DNA from: Candidatus Buchananbacteria bacterium
GTDB taxonomy: Bacteria; Patescibacteriota; Patescibacteriia; 2-01-FULL-39-33
DNA length: 55,488 nucleotides
Direction of reading: 5' to 3'
Assembly: GCA_903863425.1 (NCBI GenBank)
Contig: CAIPBY010000086.1
Span: forward strand, 1 to 55,488
Below the pieces are notes generated by a model, which was given only the letters and a program-made list of their open reading frames with translations, was not told where the DNA came from and did not search any database. A program made the translations under genes and the position numbers. Below are positions 952 to 52,540 of the stretch, in pieces (position 1 is the first letter of the stretch; the number at the start of each line of letters is the position of its first letter).

Positions 952-3900
952 TTAAGACTTCCCAAACAACTTTCCGATTGAAGTGAACAAATTATTTATC
1001 CAAGTGCCTATGGCAATTTCAACTTTATCAATAACATTCAATTGCTTTTGTTCGGAGGCGCCGGCGACACGAGGTTGGGATTGTTGGCTTGCGATTGATT
1101 TTGTAGCTGATTGATTACTTTTCGCGGAAGAAGCAGTCCAAGTGAAGTGCCAGCCATATTTTCCGACCTTGCTCTCATCACTATCTAATATAAGGGGTCT
1201 AGGATCATCAGTAGGAGTAATGGCGTACCACTTATTTGCACCCTTTTCTCTAACTTTAAGATAAAAAAGGTTATTTATGTAAAATATTTGATCATTACGA
1301 GCTACGGAGCCATTTTTATTAAAAATTCCAAATTCAGCCTCACTCCCTTCATTATCACAATTTAAAATCCAATGTCCTTGAGTGGCACTACCGTCTTTAT
1401 TAATTTTCATATTTACTCCTCTGCCACCACAACTGAGAATAAAAGTTTTACCATTAGTGCCAACAGTATCTCCATCATTAGAAGATCCAACAACATGACC
1501 GATCGTAAATTGGTCATAAACATCAGTCTGAGTCCGACCATCTTTGGCACACAATGATTTATCTTTATTTCCTGGATTTATATCCTTACACCAATTAATA
1601 CTACTATCGGGAGTAACCACGCCATGACCATCTAATTGTAAAGCCACAGTATCCCCAACTAAGACCGGACAAGCTGAATTAGTAGCCCAAGTATCACCAT
1701 TGCCTCTGCAACATACTCCAGATGGAGTGCAGGTCTTAGCCACATCTTTGGTATCATTTCTATTACCAACCGGGAGACTACCGCTAGCATCGCAAGTTCC
1801 GCAAAAGACATTTCCCCCTGTACATGTATACCCGTCATTTACACTACAATCAGTGGCACCACAAGATCCAGGATTTGTTTTTTGCCAAGTCGGTTTATTG
1901 GCAATTTTGGTACAATCAACGGTACCTCCACCACCACCTCCGCAAACTCCGGCAGTACAAGTTGGAGTAGGATCTGTGCAACCATTATCGCTTACGCAAG
2001 TCAAAGTACCACCACAACCGTCATCAAGTCCTGTGTCACAAATATTCTGATAATCCGTAGCACATGTCTTGAGATTAGGACAATTTTTGAGTGTACATTT
2101 ATTCGCGCCAGAACCATCACTACCGGCATGTCCATAACAGTTTGAATCACCATTAACTCCCTTATCACAAATTTCCTGTGGCGTATTCGTGACATTATCT
2201 CCACAAAAACTATAAGCCTGCGAATTCTTAGTACAACTAATAGGTTTACAATAATTAAATGTATCGCCAGCAAAACCCTTGGCATCGTCGTATTTATATG
2301 GACTATCAGTATTTATTAATAAACAAACAAACGGATTACCTCCAGTTAGCCAATTAGTACTATCAGTCCCGCAATCACACTTCTCATTATTAGGAGCATC
2401 AGATTGAAGGATACCATCTCCGCAAGAACCGGCGGCACACTTATTGTCGCAGGTGTTGGTAATATATAGACCGCTGGTATTTTCTACGCAGGTATTGGAA
2501 GGACCGGTGCAACCATAATGCTTAACCGGACATTTCTTTTTGCAAGAACCGCCCTCAGAATAACAGTAAACTGATGTAACACCATCGCTACTACATATTT
2601 CCCTATGGTTGGTACAATTTGTCGAAACGCTACACGATTCTACTGTAAGTTTTTTACAGTCACCAGTACACATGGCGCCTCCATCACATTCCTCATAAAC
2701 ACCGGCCGAATTTGGCGTATCTGTCTGGCCATCCCCGCAAAAATGATCTGGCAGAGGATGTATTCCATTATCCTCGCATTGTACATCACAACTAGGTGGA
2801 TTTTGCGAGCAATCTGGAGTTGATGGTTTTATATGAGCATTATCGCCACAAGGATTTGTATTATTTACGCAACTATTATCTGTATATGTACCGCATTTCC
2901 CTATCCAATGATCAACGATTTTACAACTATTACTGCAATGATCATTATCCACAGCATTACCGTCATCACATTCTTCACCACCATCTCCATCTCTATTACT
3001 ATCTCCGCAATATCTATAAGCTATATTATCTGTAAAGCCACTGCAGGTACTATTGCAACTACTATATTTCTGGCCTTTCTTGCTGTTATCATATAATGCG
3101 TTTGGAGTAGACGGTGGTGTACCATTGCCATTATAAGTCACGCAAGGTTTCGCCATCATTGATAACTCATTCTGATTCTGAAGCGTTATACTCCCCCATG
3201 TGCTTCCACAATCGCATTTCTCGCCGAATCTTGCCATAGTATCTGGCCTGTCTAGGCCTTCCACTTTGCCGTTACCGCAAGTCATGGGTTGGCAAGTCTC
3301 TTGGCAGGTGCGAGCGGTCTCAGACCGAACAGAATCGCAAGCAACTTCCGTGTAAAAATCATATAAACCTGAATTGCCTGATCTGCTGGCGGGCGCATAT
3401 ATTATTTCACAAGTATTAGTTAAATTCGCGCACCTGCCTTGTCCCGGATTTTCCGCTCCCTCTGTACAATCACGTTGTATCGGCGGGTCTCCTCCTATGC
3501 ATTTACCCTGGCAAACGCCAGTCGTCTTAGAACAATTGCCATCGGGTGTTTGACCGAGTAGTAAACAACTTGGCGTAAGGTCGCTACAATTTGTTGCTGT
3601 ACCATCACCACATGTGACGAAGCTTACCTGCTGGCACTGATGGTCACTGCCGGGAAGCTCGCAACAGCTAGGGAGACCGCAGGTAGGAACCAGAGGATTA
3701 CCCCTCTTAAATTCACATGTCTCAGGAGGAGTGAAAATCCCATCTCCGCAGACAACCTGGGGATCTTCTCCTTGGCAAGCAAATCCAGTTGTGCATTGAC
3801 AGCTAGCCGAACAACCGCTGTTGCCTTCTCCATTTTGCTTTCCCTTGCAAGTTCTTATATCGCCTGTACCGCAATCACATTCCTCGTGCGGTCCTTTAAT

Positions 3901-42929: not shown

Positions 42930-43317
42930 GGGGATGTATGTTTTGATAGAGAGCCAATTATAAAATGGCAAGCCGAGCTTGATAATATCTCGTTAAACCA
43001 TTATCAACTATATAAGTGCCAAAAACTTATTGGCAAAGGTAACATCCGCTTTTAGTGGATTAGCTTTTGCTCCTGCTATTGCCTAATTTAGGCCAAAATA
43101 GCCATCGCCCCATCCATTTCTCATAAGTGGTAAGCGGTGTTATATTATGAGAATCGACAAGGATCATGCCCTTTGAAACTTGTTTAAACTTAAAGGGATA
43201 GGCTTATATTATTTTGCTCTTTTCTCAAATATAAGCTAAAATATTATAAAAGAGCGAAAGCTTGTGAACCTATTTATAGTTTCTTTCTAGACAGGAGCTC
43301 ATTACTCCTCATCTCCA
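42930..43317 (+). ncRNA. ssrA: tmRNA (ssrA)
   Basis: It starts 26 nt after the smpB stop. The 5' GGGGATG pairs with the 3' CATCTCC, including the G3-U70 wobble. There is a T-arm-like AGGAG-CTCATTA-CTCCT. The candidate tag ORF at 43018-43086 is GCC AAA ... GCT ATT GCC TAA (AKNLLAKVTSAFSGLAFAPAIA*). No CCA is encoded. Confidence 0.7.
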
Positions 43318-43324
43318 CGGGCAA

Positions 43325-44888: not shown

Positions 44889-44962
44889 GGATCGGTAGAT
44901 CAACTGGTTAGATCGCGTCCCTGTCACGGACGAGGTTGCGGGTTCGAGTCCCGTCCGGTCCG
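44889..44962 (+). tRNA. tRNA-Asp (GUC)
   Basis: GGATCGG-TA-GATC-AACTGGTTA-GATC-G-CGTCC-CTGTCAC-GGACG-AGGTT-GCGGG-TTCGAGT-CCCGT-CCGGTCC-G. No CCA is encoded. Confidence 0.85.
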
Positions 44963-46585
44963 CATAACGGAACAATTAGACGCTAAAGCGTCTTTTTTGT
45001 TTGTATTCATTGATGTTTCTGCGGTTATAGTGGACTGCTTATTGCTATTGTACTCAAAAATGAATCTATGTGGCGAAGTTTCATTATTTGCCAATACTTT
45101 CGCGGTTATTGTCGGGTTATAGTAGATGAACTGAAAAATATCTCTTCTTTGCTCTGGTGATCCATTTTTAAACTTGATATTTAGATTCTTCATAAAATCA
45201 ACATACCGAGTACAAAGGTCAAACCAGCGCTGACTCTGGCTCTCAGTGTCTTCCATTTTCTCTTTAATTATCTTAATTTCTTCTTGGGTCTCCTTTTTTT
45301 GATCTATAAATTCATTATCAGTTAATAGATTGCCGTCTTTATTGTCGGGAGATATTCTTAACCGCAATAAGTTGTCTAATCGTTGCTTACAGCGATTTAA
45401 CTCCGCTTGTTGTTGTTTAATAATGGCTTCCTGTTGCGAGAGTTCTTTTTCGTTTTCGGCAGTTATCTCTTCCATGGCCAACTTATAAAAATCTTCATCC
45501 ATAGTTAGCTCATCCATCTTCTTAGATATTTGCTCCTCCAACTCAGTCTCTCTGATGTAACTTAATCCTGTGCATTTACAACAACGATAGTACGGTAGGC
45601 CTTTTGAAGTAATACCAGAAATATTTCCACCACAAATACCGCATGCAATTAGGTTAGAATATGGATAAAAGCGTTTTTTGCCGACAGGTGTGCTTCTTAA
45701 TCCCAATACTTCTTGCACCCGCTCAAATAGCTCTTTACTAATTATTGGATCATGTCTCGTCTCTGTCGGTGATTCGTAGGGCTCTATAATTCTGCCCGTC
45801 CATCTTATTCCTCCATAATAAAATGGATTAGTCAAAATACGATATAGACTTGATTTAACCATTTTCTTTTCACTTCTACCGCCAGTTAAGCCCCATTTGA
45901 ATGCCTCGCCCCTTAATTTATCAAGCGTATAATGACCAGTGGAGCACTCCTCAAATAATTTCATTATTAACGGGTATAAAAAGGGATCTTTCTCAACTCT
46001 TTTTAATGGCCGTCCTAGATCGCCAAGCGCTACTTGTTTATCTAGCGAGTAAGTCTTGCCAGATATCTTGCCGTTAGGATCAATATTTAAATATCCCCTT
46101 GGAGCAAAATTTGGTATTTCACCTTTATTGAGTTTAGATTGGATATCTCTTTTAACAAACTCCGAAGTATCATCGGAGCTTTTTTTAGACATAGCAAATT
46201 GGAGGGCTAGAATAAACTCTTGTCCTGAATTCTTGGCGTATATTTCATGCGGAGTTCGCACTTCCTTGATGATGCCCTCTTTAAGCATATCCATTATTAG
46301 GCCTGCATCTCTCATATTTCTTGATAAGCGCGAAATATGGTATACCAAAACGGCATTAGCTTTGCCTTGCTCTATAAGCTCAATCAATTCGGCAAACTTG
46401 TCTCTGCCTTGCTTGTATGCTGATTGCGCCTCCTCTAGATCGGCGACAATTTTTAGATCGTGCTGATTGGCAAACTTAATTAGCTCTCTTTTTTGAGAAT
46501 CTAAACTTAAGGTCTGCTTATCCTCACCCTCAGAGGATTTGCGCCTGTAAATAATGTATTTTAATTGTTCTGGCTTATTTTCCAT
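44924..46585 (-). CDS. Large serine recombinase (integrase)
   Basis: MENKPEQLKYIIYRRKSSEGEDKQTLSLDSQ is the resolvase catalytic N-terminus with the Ser nucleophile region. LVYHISRLSRN and the zinc ribbon CGICGG..YYRCCKC precede a coiled-coil. The start is set at 46585; the track's upstream Met at 46630 lies in an inverted-repeat region. The last 13 codons plus the stop are encoded by the antisense of tRNA-Asp. Confidence 0.85.
   Translation of the reverse strand: MENKPEQLKYIIYRRKSSEGEDKQTLSLDSQKRELIKFANQHDLKIVADLEEAQSAYKQGRDKFAELIELIEQGKANAVLVYHISRLSRNMRDAGLIMDMLKEGIIKEVRTPHEIYAKNSGQEFILALQFAMSKKSSDDTSEFVKRDIQSKLNKGEIPNFAPRGYLNIDPNGKISGKTYSLDKQVALGDLGRPLKRVEKDPFLYPLIMKLFEECSTGHYTLDKLRGEAFKWGLTGGRSEKKMVKSSLYRILTNPFYYGGIRWTGRIIEPYESPTETRHDPIISKELFERVQEVLGLRSTPVGKKRFYPYSNLIACGICGGNISGITSKGLPYYRCCKCTGLSYIRETELEEQISKKMDELTMDEDFYKLAMEEITAENEKELSQQEAIIKQQQAELNRCKQRLDNLLRLRISPDNKDGNLLTDNEFIDQKKETQEEIKIIKEKMEDTESQSQRWFDLCTRYVDFMKNLNIKFKNGSPEQRRDIFQFIYYNPTITAKVLANNETSPHRFIFEYNSNKQSTITAETSMNTNKKDALASNCSVMRTGRDSNPQPRP
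44978..44998 (+). terminator. Intrinsic terminator after tRNA-Asp
   Basis: AGACGC-TAAA-GCGTCT followed by TTTTTT. Confidence 0.75.
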
Positions 46586-46732
46586 ATTTTTATAATTCAA
46601 AAAGGGACAACCGAACTGTTGCACACACATTATAAAACAGAGCGTTTTTTAATGAGTCAGTCAGTTGTCCCTTTTTGGGCAATAAAAAAACTCTATTTCT
46701 GAATGTGTGTGCAATTAAATGATACCATAAAT

Positions 46733-49698: not shown

Positions 49699-49727
49699 TT
49701 GAATTTATTGTCTAGTTTTGATATAGT
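49699..49727 (+). promoter_or_regulatory. Sigma70-like promoter
   Basis: TTGAAT (49699-49704), a 17-nt spacer, then TATAGT (49722-49727). It sits in a long AT-rich divergent intergenic region. Confidence 0.5.
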
Positions 49728-49758
49728 AGGAATACAATAATGACCTAAATTACTAGAT

Positions 49759-49885
49759 TCTAGTGACATGGTCGCAAGTCCAGTTAGACATGAAGAACCC
49801 ATCATGTGTTTTTTGTCTAACTGGCCGTTTCGGGAAACCGAAATGAGTGGCGCAAGTCACTAGACTCACGTGGTGGGCTTTTTGA
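49759..49885 (+). ncRNA. Structured 5' leader or small RNA with mutually exclusive helices and GNRA tetraloops
   Basis: TCTAGTGAC (49759-67) pairs with GTCACTAGA (49856-64). CCAGTTAGACA (49780-90) pairs with TGTCTAACTGG (49813-23). TTTCGG-GAAA-CCGAAA is a hairpin. GTGGC-GCAA-GTCAC competes with the first helix. CCCATCATGTG (49798-808) pairs with CACGTGGTGGG (49868-78), followed by CTTTTT. Confidence 0.45.
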
Positions 49886-49904: not shown

Positions 49905-50132
49905 ATGAAGTTTATATTTTATTTTTTAGTGAGCTATCTCTTGTATGGTGCTTTTTTGATTGGGCGCGATTTTACTACTAACTGGAGGAATGCTCCTGAA
50001 TATGTGCGAGATCCCAATCCAGTCATGATAATTTATGCCTTAATCCGTAAGCCATTATTGATCAATGGTGTCGCCATGTGCTTGGTAATAGTGGGTGTGA
50101 TTGGGCTTATTCTGTTTTTTATATTCGGTTAA
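49905..50132 (+). CDS. Small two-TM membrane protein (75 aa)
   Basis: MKFIFYFLVSYLLYGAFLIG... and LLINGVAMCLVIVGVIGLILFFIFG. Confidence 0.5.
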   Translation: MKFIFYFLVSYLLYGAFLIGRDFTTNWRNAPEYVRDPNPVMIIYALIRKPLLINGVAMCLVIVGVIGLILFFIFG

Positions 50133-50136
50133 TCAT

Positions 50137-51588
50137 ATGGATAAACCAATGAAAACTCGCCTAACCCCGCCAGAGTGGTTCGTTTTGTTTCTCCGCGACA
50201 AGAAGTACCCGAACGAAGACAAGGGCTCATTAAATAGAGCAGAGTTCCTGGCCTTGAATAACTGGAAACCGAGGAAAGATGAGGAAAAGGAATTCAATCA
50301 ACTCATGAGCCAATGGCAGAATATCTTGTTTGCGGAGATAGGCGCTAAGATGGCATTTTACGGCCTTGAGTGGCAGTGTTTTAAGGCCAGAGACTGGTTG
50401 ATGTATTTCAGCTATAAGGATCAAGAATTTGGTCTATTAAAGAATTATGTGGAGAATCACATAAACTCGTCAACATTTGACCCGCTGGATATTCTACTTA
50501 GAAATAGCTGGATTGAATTTGACCACCTGACATATCTGCTGACTTTTGAATTGATGGATTTGGGACTGCGCAAGGATTTATGGATTTGTGATCGCAATGT
50601 CATGTTAGTAGAGAACTATTTGAGGGATCAAGAAACTGTCGCCGACATATTGATTGTCAATGGCGGCCTCACTGAAGTGGCCAAAGAAAAGATAGCCGAG
50701 GCCATAGTCAACAAAATGCACTGCGGCGCTTATCCCGATTATCGATTTTTTCTGTATTGGTATGACTTCATTATGTTCCCAACCATAGAAATAGGCAGAA
50801 GATTTGTTAAGCGCCATAATGTTTATTGTTTGCCGACAGAGCAGGAGAAGAAAGAGCATAAATGCGCCAGCTCTAAAATACTGGAAGAATTCACCTTAAA
50901 AAGAGCAATAGTTGATCATGTCCAGAAATACAACATTAACTTAAAAGAGCAATTCCAAGATATTGCCAAGGAATTATTGGATGAGGGATTGTTGGAAACT
51001 CTCCCGCTTTTCTGGGGCAATAGCAATCAGATTAAGGGCGATAAAGGAGAACACACCAATTATAGCGGCCAGAAGCTATATGATGAGTGGAAACGTTATA
51101 AAGGCTTGGCCGAAGCTGAATTACAATATTTGGTCAGTGGCGGATCGCTGGAAGTAGGTTATCTGGACAAACGCAAATATTGTTCCTTTGCTAAGGAGGA
51201 AAATAAAGTTGTCTCGGCTAAGAGCTTGTATGAGCTAAAGAGCGATTATGGGCTGGTCAGGGATTTTAAACAACAGATGTCTGATCTGCAATTTCTCGGC
51301 CCTATGATAAGTCTGTGGGACAAGAAGAGTTATGGAAGCAATCGCTTGATTCTTTCGCAGTCGACGGAGACCATCAAAAAGTCAGCCGAGATTCTCGGAG
51401 CCGATTTTAGCGATAAGATCGAAGAAATTAAGGGCTACATTGATGAACTAGATAAGCTCGCAAAAAAAGTTGATGATCAGGCCGATAGCTTGGTTGACTG
51501 CTATGTGGCCAACGGTTGGAATAATACAGCAACAAGAAAATTTTCTATCAGAATTAAATTGTCTTCACTAAAAGATCTACAATTATGA
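50137..51588 (+). CDS. Hypothetical 483-aa protein, no recognisable family
   Basis: The start was moved to MDKPMKTRL (ATG 50137), 4 nt after the upstream stop. It overlaps the SppA start by 4 nt (ATGA). Confidence 0.6.
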   Translation: MDKPMKTRLTPPEWFVLFLRDKKYPNEDKGSLNRAEFLALNNWKPRKDEEKEFNQLMSQWQNILFAEIGAKMAFYGLEWQCFKARDWLMYFSYKDQEFGLLKNYVENHINSSTFDPLDILLRNSWIEFDHLTYLLTFELMDLGLRKDLWICDRNVMLVENYLRDQETVADILIVNGGLTEVAKEKIAEAIVNKMHCGAYPDYRFFLYWYDFIMFPTIEIGRRFVKRHNVYCLPTEQEKKEHKCASSKILEEFTLKRAIVDHVQKYNINLKEQFQDIAKELLDEGLLETLPLFWGNSNQIKGDKGEHTNYSGQKLYDEWKRYKGLAEAELQYLVSGGSLEVGYLDKRKYCSFAKEENKVVSAKSLYELKSDYGLVRDFKQQMSDLQFLGPMISLWDKKSYGSNRLILSQSTETIKKSAEILGADFSDKIEEIKGYIDELDKLAKKVDDQADSLVDCYVANGWNNTATRKFSIRIKLSSLKDLQL

Positions 51589-52412
51589 AATTCTACCTAT
51601 CGTCAAAAATTAAGAAAATAGTCAAAATTACATCTATTGTTATTCTTGCTGTAACAGTAATAATTTTTTGGGTTGTCGTCTCTTGTTTGTTTATTGACGA
51701 GTGGCCAAGTAATAATAAAGATAAGAGTGATTGTAACGTGGCCAACATCAAGTTGTACGGCGATTTATATACCTATGTCAAAGAAACTGATGATTGCAAA
51801 GATTGCGCCTCATCAGAAGAAGTGGTTAATCAGATCAGGGACGCTGAAGCAAATAATGATATTAAAGCAATATTACTTACTATTGATTCTACTGGTGGCA
51901 ACCCTGTGGCGGCCGAAGAAATTGCCAACACCCTAAAACAAGCGAGCAAGCCAACCGTGGCTCTAATAAGAAGTAGCGGTGATTCTGGGGCATATTTTGC
52001 AGCTACTGGCGCTGAGAGAATATTTGCCAGTGACATGTCAGATGTAGGATCAATAGGTATAACTTCTTCGTATGTAGATAATTCTAAAAAGAATCAGAAA
52101 GATGGCCTGACATATAATTCGCTCAGTCTTGGAAAATACAAGGATACTGGCAATCCAGATAAGCCATTAACCGATGAAGAAAAGAAAATGATATTAAATG
52201 ATTTGCAAGTTGGCTATGATATATTTATTAAGAATGTGGCTAATAATAGACACTTAGATATAGAGAAAGTTAAAGCGCTGGCTGATGGCAATAGTATGGA
52301 TGGTCAAAAAGCCTTGGATAATGGCCTCATAGATCAATTAGGTAGTTTGTCGGATGTTGAGACATATTTGGCCAATAAGATCGGCGGAGAGACACTATAC
52401 GTCTGTCGTTAA
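51585..52412 (+). CDS. sppA: Membrane-anchored S49 family signal peptide peptidase (SppA, 36K type)
   Basis: An N-terminal TM segment. IKAILLTIDSTGGNPVAAEEIANTLKQASKPTVALIRSSGDSGAYFAATGAERIFA contains the Ser nucleophile region. SIGITSS, GKYKDTGNPDKPLTDEEKKM and DGQKALDNGLIDQLG also fit. Confidence 0.8.
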   Translation: MKFYLSSKIKKIVKITSIVILAVTVIIFWVVVSCLFIDEWPSNNKDKSDCNVANIKLYGDLYTYVKETDDCKDCASSEEVVNQIRDAEANNDIKAILLTIDSTGGNPVAAEEIANTLKQASKPTVALIRSSGDSGAYFAATGAERIFASDMSDVGSIGITSSYVDNSKKNQKDGLTYNSLSLGKYKDTGNPDKPLTDEEKKMILNDLQVGYDIFIKNVANNRHLDIEKVKALADGNSMDGQKALDNGLIDQLGSLSDVETYLANKIGGETLYVCR

Positions 52413-52540
52413 AACAATAATTGAAACAGCGAGAGCGGACATAGAATCCGCTCTCGCTTTGGCTTTGACTTTTACGCTCAAATATGGCATTATAAAAGCA
52501 ATTTAACTCCCAATAAAATATAATATCAACGAAATAATAT

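Follow-up and report, generated by a model that had tools for sequence, protein, structure and literature searches.

A LOOT RNA with a covarying long-range helix and a terminator-like U-run heads an operon of a Candidatus Buchananbacteria bacterium: a candidate attenuating leader

The DNA analyzed here, referred to as the window, is a stretch of 55,488 nucleotides from a Candidatus Buchananbacteria bacterium (GenBank assembly GCA_903863425.1, contig CAIPBY010000086.1), and the element under study lies on its forward strand in front of a same-strand operon (Table 1). The host assembly comprises 1.12 Mb with 39.6% GC and is 98.8% complete. For a 457-aa housekeeping protein encoded in the window, the best hits share 70-74% identity with it and come mostly from MAGs of Candidatus Falkowbacteria, Magasanikiibacteriota and the Parcubacteria group, which places the host among the Patescibacteria (CPR); the top match (74%) is from a MAG labelled uncultured Gammaproteobacteria, which was taken as mislabelled. 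The first gene of the operon encodes a small hydrophobic protein without a Pfam or PHROG match. It is followed by the genes for a 483-aa protein, for which neither a Pfam or PHROG family match nor relatives in the genome contigs searched were found, and for an S49 peptidase (Peptidase_S49, E = 2e-34). A GC-rich hairpin between the stop codon of the peptidase gene (52412) and the start of hsdM (52541) is probably a two-way terminator that separates this operon from the hsdM operon.

About 3 kb upstream of the element, a large serine recombinase of 568 aa is encoded on the reverse strand (44924-46630) beside a tRNA gene, and it gave a PHROG integrase match (E = 4e-60). A tmRNA gene (42930-43320), the tRNA gene (44889-44962) and the recombinase gene adjoin one another, and this cluster probably marks the integration end of an island that carries the element together with its operon. 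The island extends past the contig end.

Table 1. Features of the LOOT locus and the operon behind it (positions of the window)
Feature	Position	Strand	Basis
-35 hexamer TTGAAT	49699-49704	+	Promoter scan
Extended -10 TGaTATAGT	49719-49727	+	TATAGT 49722-49727, TG 49719-49720
Conserved (T)ACAAT box, probable transcription start and RNA 5' end	49733-49738	+	Family alignment
LOOT RNA core, stems P1-P4	49742-49861	+	cmscan against Rfam RF03000
P1	49742-49773	+	Rfam alignment
P2: 11-bp perfect lower stem CCAGUUAGACA/UGUCUAACUGG, weak A-U/G-U upper stem, loop	49780-49824	+	Rfam alignment
Long-range helix, 5' strand CCCAUCAUGUG (P2 apical loop and part of upper stem)	49798-49808	+	Duplex energy, covariation
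P3 hairpin, GAAA loop	49826-49845	+	Rfam alignment
P4 hairpin, GCAA (GNRA) loop	49846-49861	+	Rfam alignment
Long-range helix, 3' strand CACGUGGUGGG (3' tail, outside the Rfam model)	49867-49877	+	Duplex energy, covariation
C + U5 run, terminator-like tract directly after the helix	about 49878-49884	+	Sequence
First gene, 75-aa hydrophobic (membrane) protein	49905-50132	+	ORF, start 43 nt past LOOT core
483-aa protein and S49 (SppA/ClpP-like) peptidase	50137-52412	+	ORFs, Pfam
GC-rich hairpin, perfect 12-13 bp palindrome, closing the LOOT-led operon	52428-52458	+	Terminator scan

An earlier sequence-only reading of this region had described a promoter followed by a riboswitch-like or attenuator-like leader and had proposed a scan against Rfam, with no family named. 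When the whole window was scanned with cmscan, the core of the leader matched LOOT (RF03000) with 89.9 bits (gathering score 46.4; E = 8e-16) over the full length of the model (positions 1-121 of 121), and no family besides LOOT was reported at this site. The flagged element adds a further copy to a catalogued orphan RNA family. Its four-stem architecture is complete, and the cmscan alignment contains two non-standard pairs, both of them in upper P2. The ~150-160 nt that follow the promoter fold at -59.3 kcal/mol as compared with -37.8 ± 3.9 kcal/mol for dinucleotide shuffles (z = -5.55), and none of the 200 shuffles equalled the native sequence.

LOOT originates from the Weinberg/Breaker candidate RNA set (Weinberg et al., 2017; PMC5737381), the main text of which does not discuss the family. 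It is displayed as a metagenome-based family in the Rfam 14 paper (PMC7779021), its structure was refined in Rfam 15 with two covarying pairs added (PMC11701678), and the CaCoFold paper (PMC7657543) assigns it six helices with about 43 bp. These six helices equal P1a, P1b, P2a, P2b, P3 and P4, and consequently the pseudoknot described below is not among them. The type given in Rfam is 'Gene; sRNA'. No function was found to be proposed for LOOT in the literature searched, where its mentions were limited to lists and a figure legend.

LOOT was present in 17 of 41 genomes of relatives, in 37 of 151 class-sampled and in 30 of 151 phylum-sampled genomes, while none of the 14 control genomes contained it; its frequency amounts to ~20-25% of the sampled Patescibacteria genomes. 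The CPR/Patescibacteria host of the window agrees with the known occurrence of the family in small-genome uncultured bacteria and metagenomes. Four copies were found in the host genome, namely the window copy, one at C83:2451-2578 and two on contig C40. The latter are arranged in tandem (2166-2282 and 3537-3643; L003 and L004) with ~1.3 kb between them, each standing before small membrane-protein genes. The second of them (50.7 bits) is without the upper P2 stem and without the pairing between tail and P2 described below (-11.7 kcal/mol), and may have decayed or represent a variant. The scattered occurrence of LOOT, often in several copies, is in line with mobile DNA, mobile islands being the usual location.

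For comparison within the family, 46 LOOT loci with their flanks were oriented and aligned with plain MAFFT (alignment A1), which is blind to structure. Stem P1 of the window copy consists of a GACC/GGUC base, a CCUAAA...CAUGG internal loop and the hairpin UUACUAG-AUU-CUAGUGA; the CCUAA and AUGG segments are among the most conserved columns of the family, and the GAAA loop of P3 is invariant or nearly so. The canonical 11-nt GAAA tetraloop receptor is a CCUAAG/UAUGG internal loop. The P1 loop of the window copy resembles this receptor, as do the CCUAAC...UAUGG loops of some other copies, the difference being that the closing G.U pair is replaced in LOOT P1. By this likeness, it seems likely that the P3 GAAA loop (49834-49837) docks into the P1 loop (49745-49750 with 49767-49771). 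The most conserved nucleotides as a whole (tetraloop, receptor-like loop) look structural, unlike a ligand pocket. The isolated P2 hairpin folds at -18.4 kcal/mol, and the P1-P2 linker is A-rich across the family.

Several hairpins had been recognized from the sequence beforehand. The GAAA-capped one corresponds to P3, and the second of two similar GCAA-capped hairpins to P4; the first of these, GTCGCAAGTC (about 49771-49780), is no hairpin in the Rfam alignment, where it runs from the P1 3' strand across the P1-P2 linker into the beginning of P2. Two long perfect helices of 9 and 11 bp had been proposed as well. The 9-bp helix exists and is perfect, TCTAGTGAC (49759-49767) pairing with GTCACTAGA (49856-49864) at -15.6 kcal/mol, lower than in any other of the 46 copies. 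As an alternative pairing of the family it did not hold up: duplex energies of the equivalent segments are at control level (mean -9.5 kcal/mol vs. -9.15 ± 3.1 kcal/mol in cross-locus controls), and the helix was rejected as a family feature. It is peculiar to the window copy, and could still matter there since the minimum-free-energy fold of this copy includes it (-57.1 kcal/mol vs. -53.2 kcal/mol for the Rfam-consistent fold). The competing folds of the window copy differ by no more than ~5 kcal/mol in the thermodynamic models (-57.1, -53.2 and -52.5 kcal/mol), which counts against the attenuating leader proposed below.

The near-consensus promoter TTGAAT-N17-TATAGT that had been noted in front of the leader was recovered by the promoter scan (9 of 12 consensus matches, 17-nt spacer), and its position is fixed across the LOOT family. 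In 30 of the 46 loci, the (T)ACAAT box is preceded at a distance of 5-8 nt by a -10-like hexamer, as compared with 11% of shuffled upstream sequences, and in 20 loci a -35-like hexamer (at least 4 of 6 matches) stands at the equivalent spacing, as compared with 3% of the shuffles. A box of the ACAA(T/C) type is found 0-25 nt ahead of P1 in nearly all loci. From the spacing between box and -10 hexamer, transcription of the window copy probably starts at about 49734, and LOOT would probably form the extreme 5' end of its own transcript. The conserved sequence between the -10 hexamer and P1 has the form (T)ACAAT-TtAAT; a few loci carry a small extra hairpin between box and P1, with the box remaining on the promoter side. 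Leader-peptide attenuation was considered and rejected: the sole candidate, the mini-ORF AUG-ACC-UAA (49739-49747), overlaps the start of P1 and is a product of the conserved P1 nucleotides. It is missing from most other copies and probably arose by chance.

The most informative part of our finding is a helix that the Rfam model leaves out. In nearly all 46 loci, P4 is followed directly by a tail with the consensus AGCUGGCGUGGGG and then by a U-rich run (YUUUGUGU or U5-6). This tail complements P2 at its apical loop and upper 3' side, and both partners vary together, with pairs such as CCCCACG/CGUGGGG and CCCCGCG/CGCGGGG, CCCAUCAUCAGG with CCUGGUGGUGGG, and GCUCCUCAUUGAGC with GCUCGUGGGGAGC. 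The 11-bp pairing that had been noticed before the U-tract of the window copy is real and represents the local form of this family-wide helix; the description of it as perfect does not apply, as the CCCAUCAUGUG/CACGUGGUGGG duplex contains two G.U pairs (11 bp, -16.7 kcal/mol). Its strands are 58 nt apart, with the lower P2 3' strand, P3 and P4 in between.

Across the 46 loci, the nine register-stable pairs of the helix are 90.2% paired, whereas sliding the 3' partner by 1-3 columns reduces this value to 43-59%. Compensatory changes were observed at all nine pairs tested (59 cells), and none of 500 shuffles attained any of the four helix measures. Native duplexes between P2 apex and tail have a mean of -25.6 kcal/mol vs. 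-16.8 ± 4.8 kcal/mol for cross-locus pairings. Similar values, together with new pair types, were obtained for 20 held-out loci from other classes that were collected after the hypothesis had been formed (-25.0 vs. -16.0 ± 4.8 kcal/mol). Often the duplex is longer, with an A-rich stretch 5' of the loop as partner of the U-run. Covariation of this kind is equally compatible with an intramolecular and an intermolecular helix, and with a static tertiary pseudoknot as well as a switch. The sequence-only reading had suggested that upstream regions of homologous operons be aligned for covariation; since the 483-aa protein is without relatives in the genome contigs searched, LOOT copies were compared instead, and it is the tail helix that covaries. 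This helix is absent from the descriptions of LOOT in the literature searched.

Behind the helix, 42 of the 46 loci carry a U-rich tract, and in the window copy the CTTTTT tract that had been pointed out is the C + U5 run directly after the 11-bp helix. The helix at 49798-49808/49867-49877 resembles the stem of an intrinsic terminator in that it is stable, GC-rich and ends one nucleotide before the U-run (0-2 nt in an intrinsic terminator). The simple short-loop hairpin of an intrinsic terminator was not found here, the only local hairpin having 5 bp. Throughout the host genome, 26 intrinsic-terminator-like sites were counted vs. 14.5 ± 3.7 expected.

At many loci, the tail has a second possible partner. 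In 28 of the 46 it pairs with a segment 20-45 nt downstream at -12 kcal/mol or below, with the U-rich run in the loop, while only 30% of cross-locus pairings reach this energy; the competitor was assessed by this matched vs. cross-locus duplex test, and the position of its strand varies among loci. In L003, L005, L008, L009, L015, L032 and L034, the second segment can alternatively pair with a third one that is followed by a U-run, which by its pairing potential reads as the classic terminator/antiterminator triplet. No downstream competitor for the tail was found in the window copy (-4.4 kcal/mol); tail helix and upper P2 stem have nucleotides in common, and the only competition in this copy is between the top of P2 and the tail. 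An unbroken U-run of at least five residues is present in 9 of the 12 copies without a competitor, including the window copy, and in 2 of the 28 with one, a contrast (Fisher, 3.7e-5) that is drawn from related and hence not independent copies. This contrast is expected if helix and U-run act as a terminator where no separate terminator is provided.

A further arrangement was observed at ~8-10 of the 46 loci and recurred in the held-out set, in which a repeat of the lower P2 5' strand stands immediately ahead of the start codon of the following gene. By sequence complementarity, the P2 3' strand could mask the start site in these decoy copies. The loci concerned are L012, L016, L017, L020, L025, L026, L042, L046, L127, L128, L136 and L141; the repeat lies 30-55 nt past the LOOT core, includes the preceding A-run and differs in sequence between copies. 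No start-codon decoy was found in the window copy, where CCAGTTAGACA occurs in P2 alone and near-matches are at chance level. The window copy belongs to the simplest class, with the tail helix and an unbroken U-run.

We propose, at a probability slightly better than even (about 0.55), that LOOT is a cis-acting leader whose pseudoknot and U5 run terminate or attenuate transcription into the operon at 49905-52412. A sigma-70-type promoter would give rise to a transcript from near 49734 with LOOT as its 5' leader, and P1 to P4 would fold during transcription. Once made, the tail would form base pairs with P2 at its apical loop and upper part and oust the weak upper P2 stem. The product would be an H-type pseudoknot, with the 11-bp lower P2 as stem 1 and the 11-bp tail helix stacked on top of it as stem 2, the freed upper P2 5' strand as loop 1, and P3 and P4 inside loop 3; a rough distance estimate indicates that this is sterically possible. 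Ending one base before U5, the helix would destabilize the elongation complex in the way a terminator stem does, while failure of the helix to form in time would result in read-through. We infer that termination at the U-run would occur in cis and that the formed helix would be the OFF state. Termination or attenuation would be the default because the tail helix (-16.7 kcal/mol) beats the upper P2 stem that it replaces; read-through would then be brought about by kinetics or by another factor, with a protein, an ion, temperature or polymerase speed as possible candidates.

The proposed mechanism has partial counterparts among known systems. In the ZTP/pfl, fluoride/crcB and preQ1-I riboswitches, one strand of a pseudoknot is also part of the expression platform, and formation of the pseudoknot decides on termination by blocking a separate terminator hairpin. 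As in these riboswitches, the putative sensor domain of LOOT is conserved and the platforms differ among copies. Unlike in these riboswitches, the LOOT pseudoknot helix itself precedes the U-run, the downstream genes are without a common pathway and nothing resembling a conserved pocket-like junction is evident. LOOT has in common with a canonical intrinsic terminator the GC-rich helix with a U-run directly behind it and, 5' of the helix, an A-rich stretch capable of pairing with this run; such a terminator is, however, a simple stem with a 3-8-nt loop, whereas LOOT would form a pseudoknot with the 5' strand ~60 nt upstream inside P2. We know of no proven terminator with its 5' strand ~60 nt upstream across two other hairpins, which makes this arrangement unusual, and to our knowledge an intrinsic terminator built from a pseudoknot is a type undescribed so far. 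The Rfam description of LOOT agrees with the window copy in all four stems, in their conserved loops (CCUAAA/CAUGG in P1, GAAA in P3, GNRA in P4) and in the CPR host. The Rfam model ends at P4, however, and is without the 3' tail, the tail-P2 helix, the U-run, the promoter and the ACAAT box, and it is typed as an sRNA, whereas the context in the window points to a 5' leader.

The genes downstream of LOOT bear on what kind of RNA it is. In 41 of the 46 loci, the LOOT core is followed within 130 nt by the start of an ORF of at least 40 aa on the same strand, and in 33 loci this ORF has at least 100 aa. These genes are diverse and include zinc-ribbon proteins, secreted SNase nucleases, Dam methylases, HsdR_N proteins, peptidases and many small membrane proteins, and no association with one pathway, as would be typical of a riboswitch, was found among them. 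Nor does this variety hint at a shared signal, which speaks against the proposed leader. The suggestion that the leader is an attenuator or riboswitch is supported in part: its potential pairings follow an attenuator-like logic, since the tail helix would compete with upper P2 and in 28 of the 46 loci also with a downstream hairpin; a classic metabolite riboswitch is disfavored because the downstream genes have no common pathway and the conserved nucleotides look structural.

The close placement next to a same-strand gene also ties LOOT to its neighbors, which argues against a stand-alone, trans-acting sRNA of ~150 nt with pseudoknot and U-run as its built-in terminator and with downstream transcription arising by leak-through or independently. 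Such an RNA would be in keeping with the Rfam type, the promoter of its own, the conserved helix and U-run at the 3' end, the compact fold with conserved GNRA loops and the several copies per genome, four of them in this host. For a plain sRNA, however, a second hairpin competing for the terminator strand, which in some of the 28 loci is accompanied by a further canonical terminator, would be redundant, and the P2 strand repeats at the next start codon again link the RNA to the gene. Moreover, no second promoter was evident in the promoter scan between LOOT and the ORF of the window copy. We therefore regard the sRNA as unlikely and favor the cis-acting leader because the co-orientation is fixed, the helices compete and the repeats are matched to the gene.

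LOOT might also act in cis by other means, either by modifying the polymerase for processive antitermination or as a stabilizer or translation tuner of the mRNA, in which case the helix before the U-run would be a structural pseudoknot and no terminator. The put RNA of phage HK022 and EAR are cis-acting antitermination RNAs, and LOOT shares with them that it is a structured, promoter-proximal RNA heading mobile-element operons of varied function. Its elaborate conserved fold and its location on mobile islands, where the upstream neighbors at other loci include serine recombinases and HTH_17 (excisionase/MerR-type) genes, are consistent with a role of this kind, and the start-codon decoys of some copies point to translation control. 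LOOT differs from put and EAR, however, in having a terminator-like end of its own, no sequence or structure similarity to either was found, and Rfam reports LOOT alone. The dependence of U-run length on the absence of a competitor is predicted by a terminator role, not by a purely structural pseudoknot, and these other cis-acting roles appear to us quite unlikely. At several loci, a small HTH_17 gene on the same strand ends ~20 nt before the LOOT promoter region (L016:1284-1478, L017:1255-1476), an arrangement that seems to be associated with the start-codon-decoy type of LOOT.

A feature of the DNA or the mobile element itself without a functional RNA, such as a recombination site, an origin or a packaging signal, would suit the patchy occurrence on mobile islands, the multiple copies per genome and the tandem copies on contig C40, but is highly improbable, as the conserved GNRA loops, the G.U pairs kept on one strand only and the fixed orientation to promoter and downstream gene indicate selection on RNA.

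Returning to the attenuating leader, its variants among loci can be brought under a wider reading, in which LOOT would be the shared sensor domain of a phylum-wide CPR gene switch, in which tail and upper P2 stem compete for the P2 loop, with a pseudoknot that terminates transcription directly, the form that the window copy would represent, frees a downstream terminator or masks a start codon, depending on the copy. We hold this view tentatively and give it somewhat less than an even chance. If it is true, accessory, defense and surface genes of mobile islands would be under one common signal.

For the window alone, the result consists mainly in the membership of the flagged element in a known family. 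LOOT has been an orphan RNA since 2017, and an extended motif that includes the promoter box, the tail helix and the U-run would improve its Rfam model. CPR/Patescibacteria have tiny genomes and few known regulators. If LOOT is indeed a pseudoknot-terminator leader, it would count as one of the first regulatory mechanisms to be put forward for these bacteria, and would explain how the peptidase, nuclease, restriction-modification and surface-protein cargo of their mobile islands is controlled.
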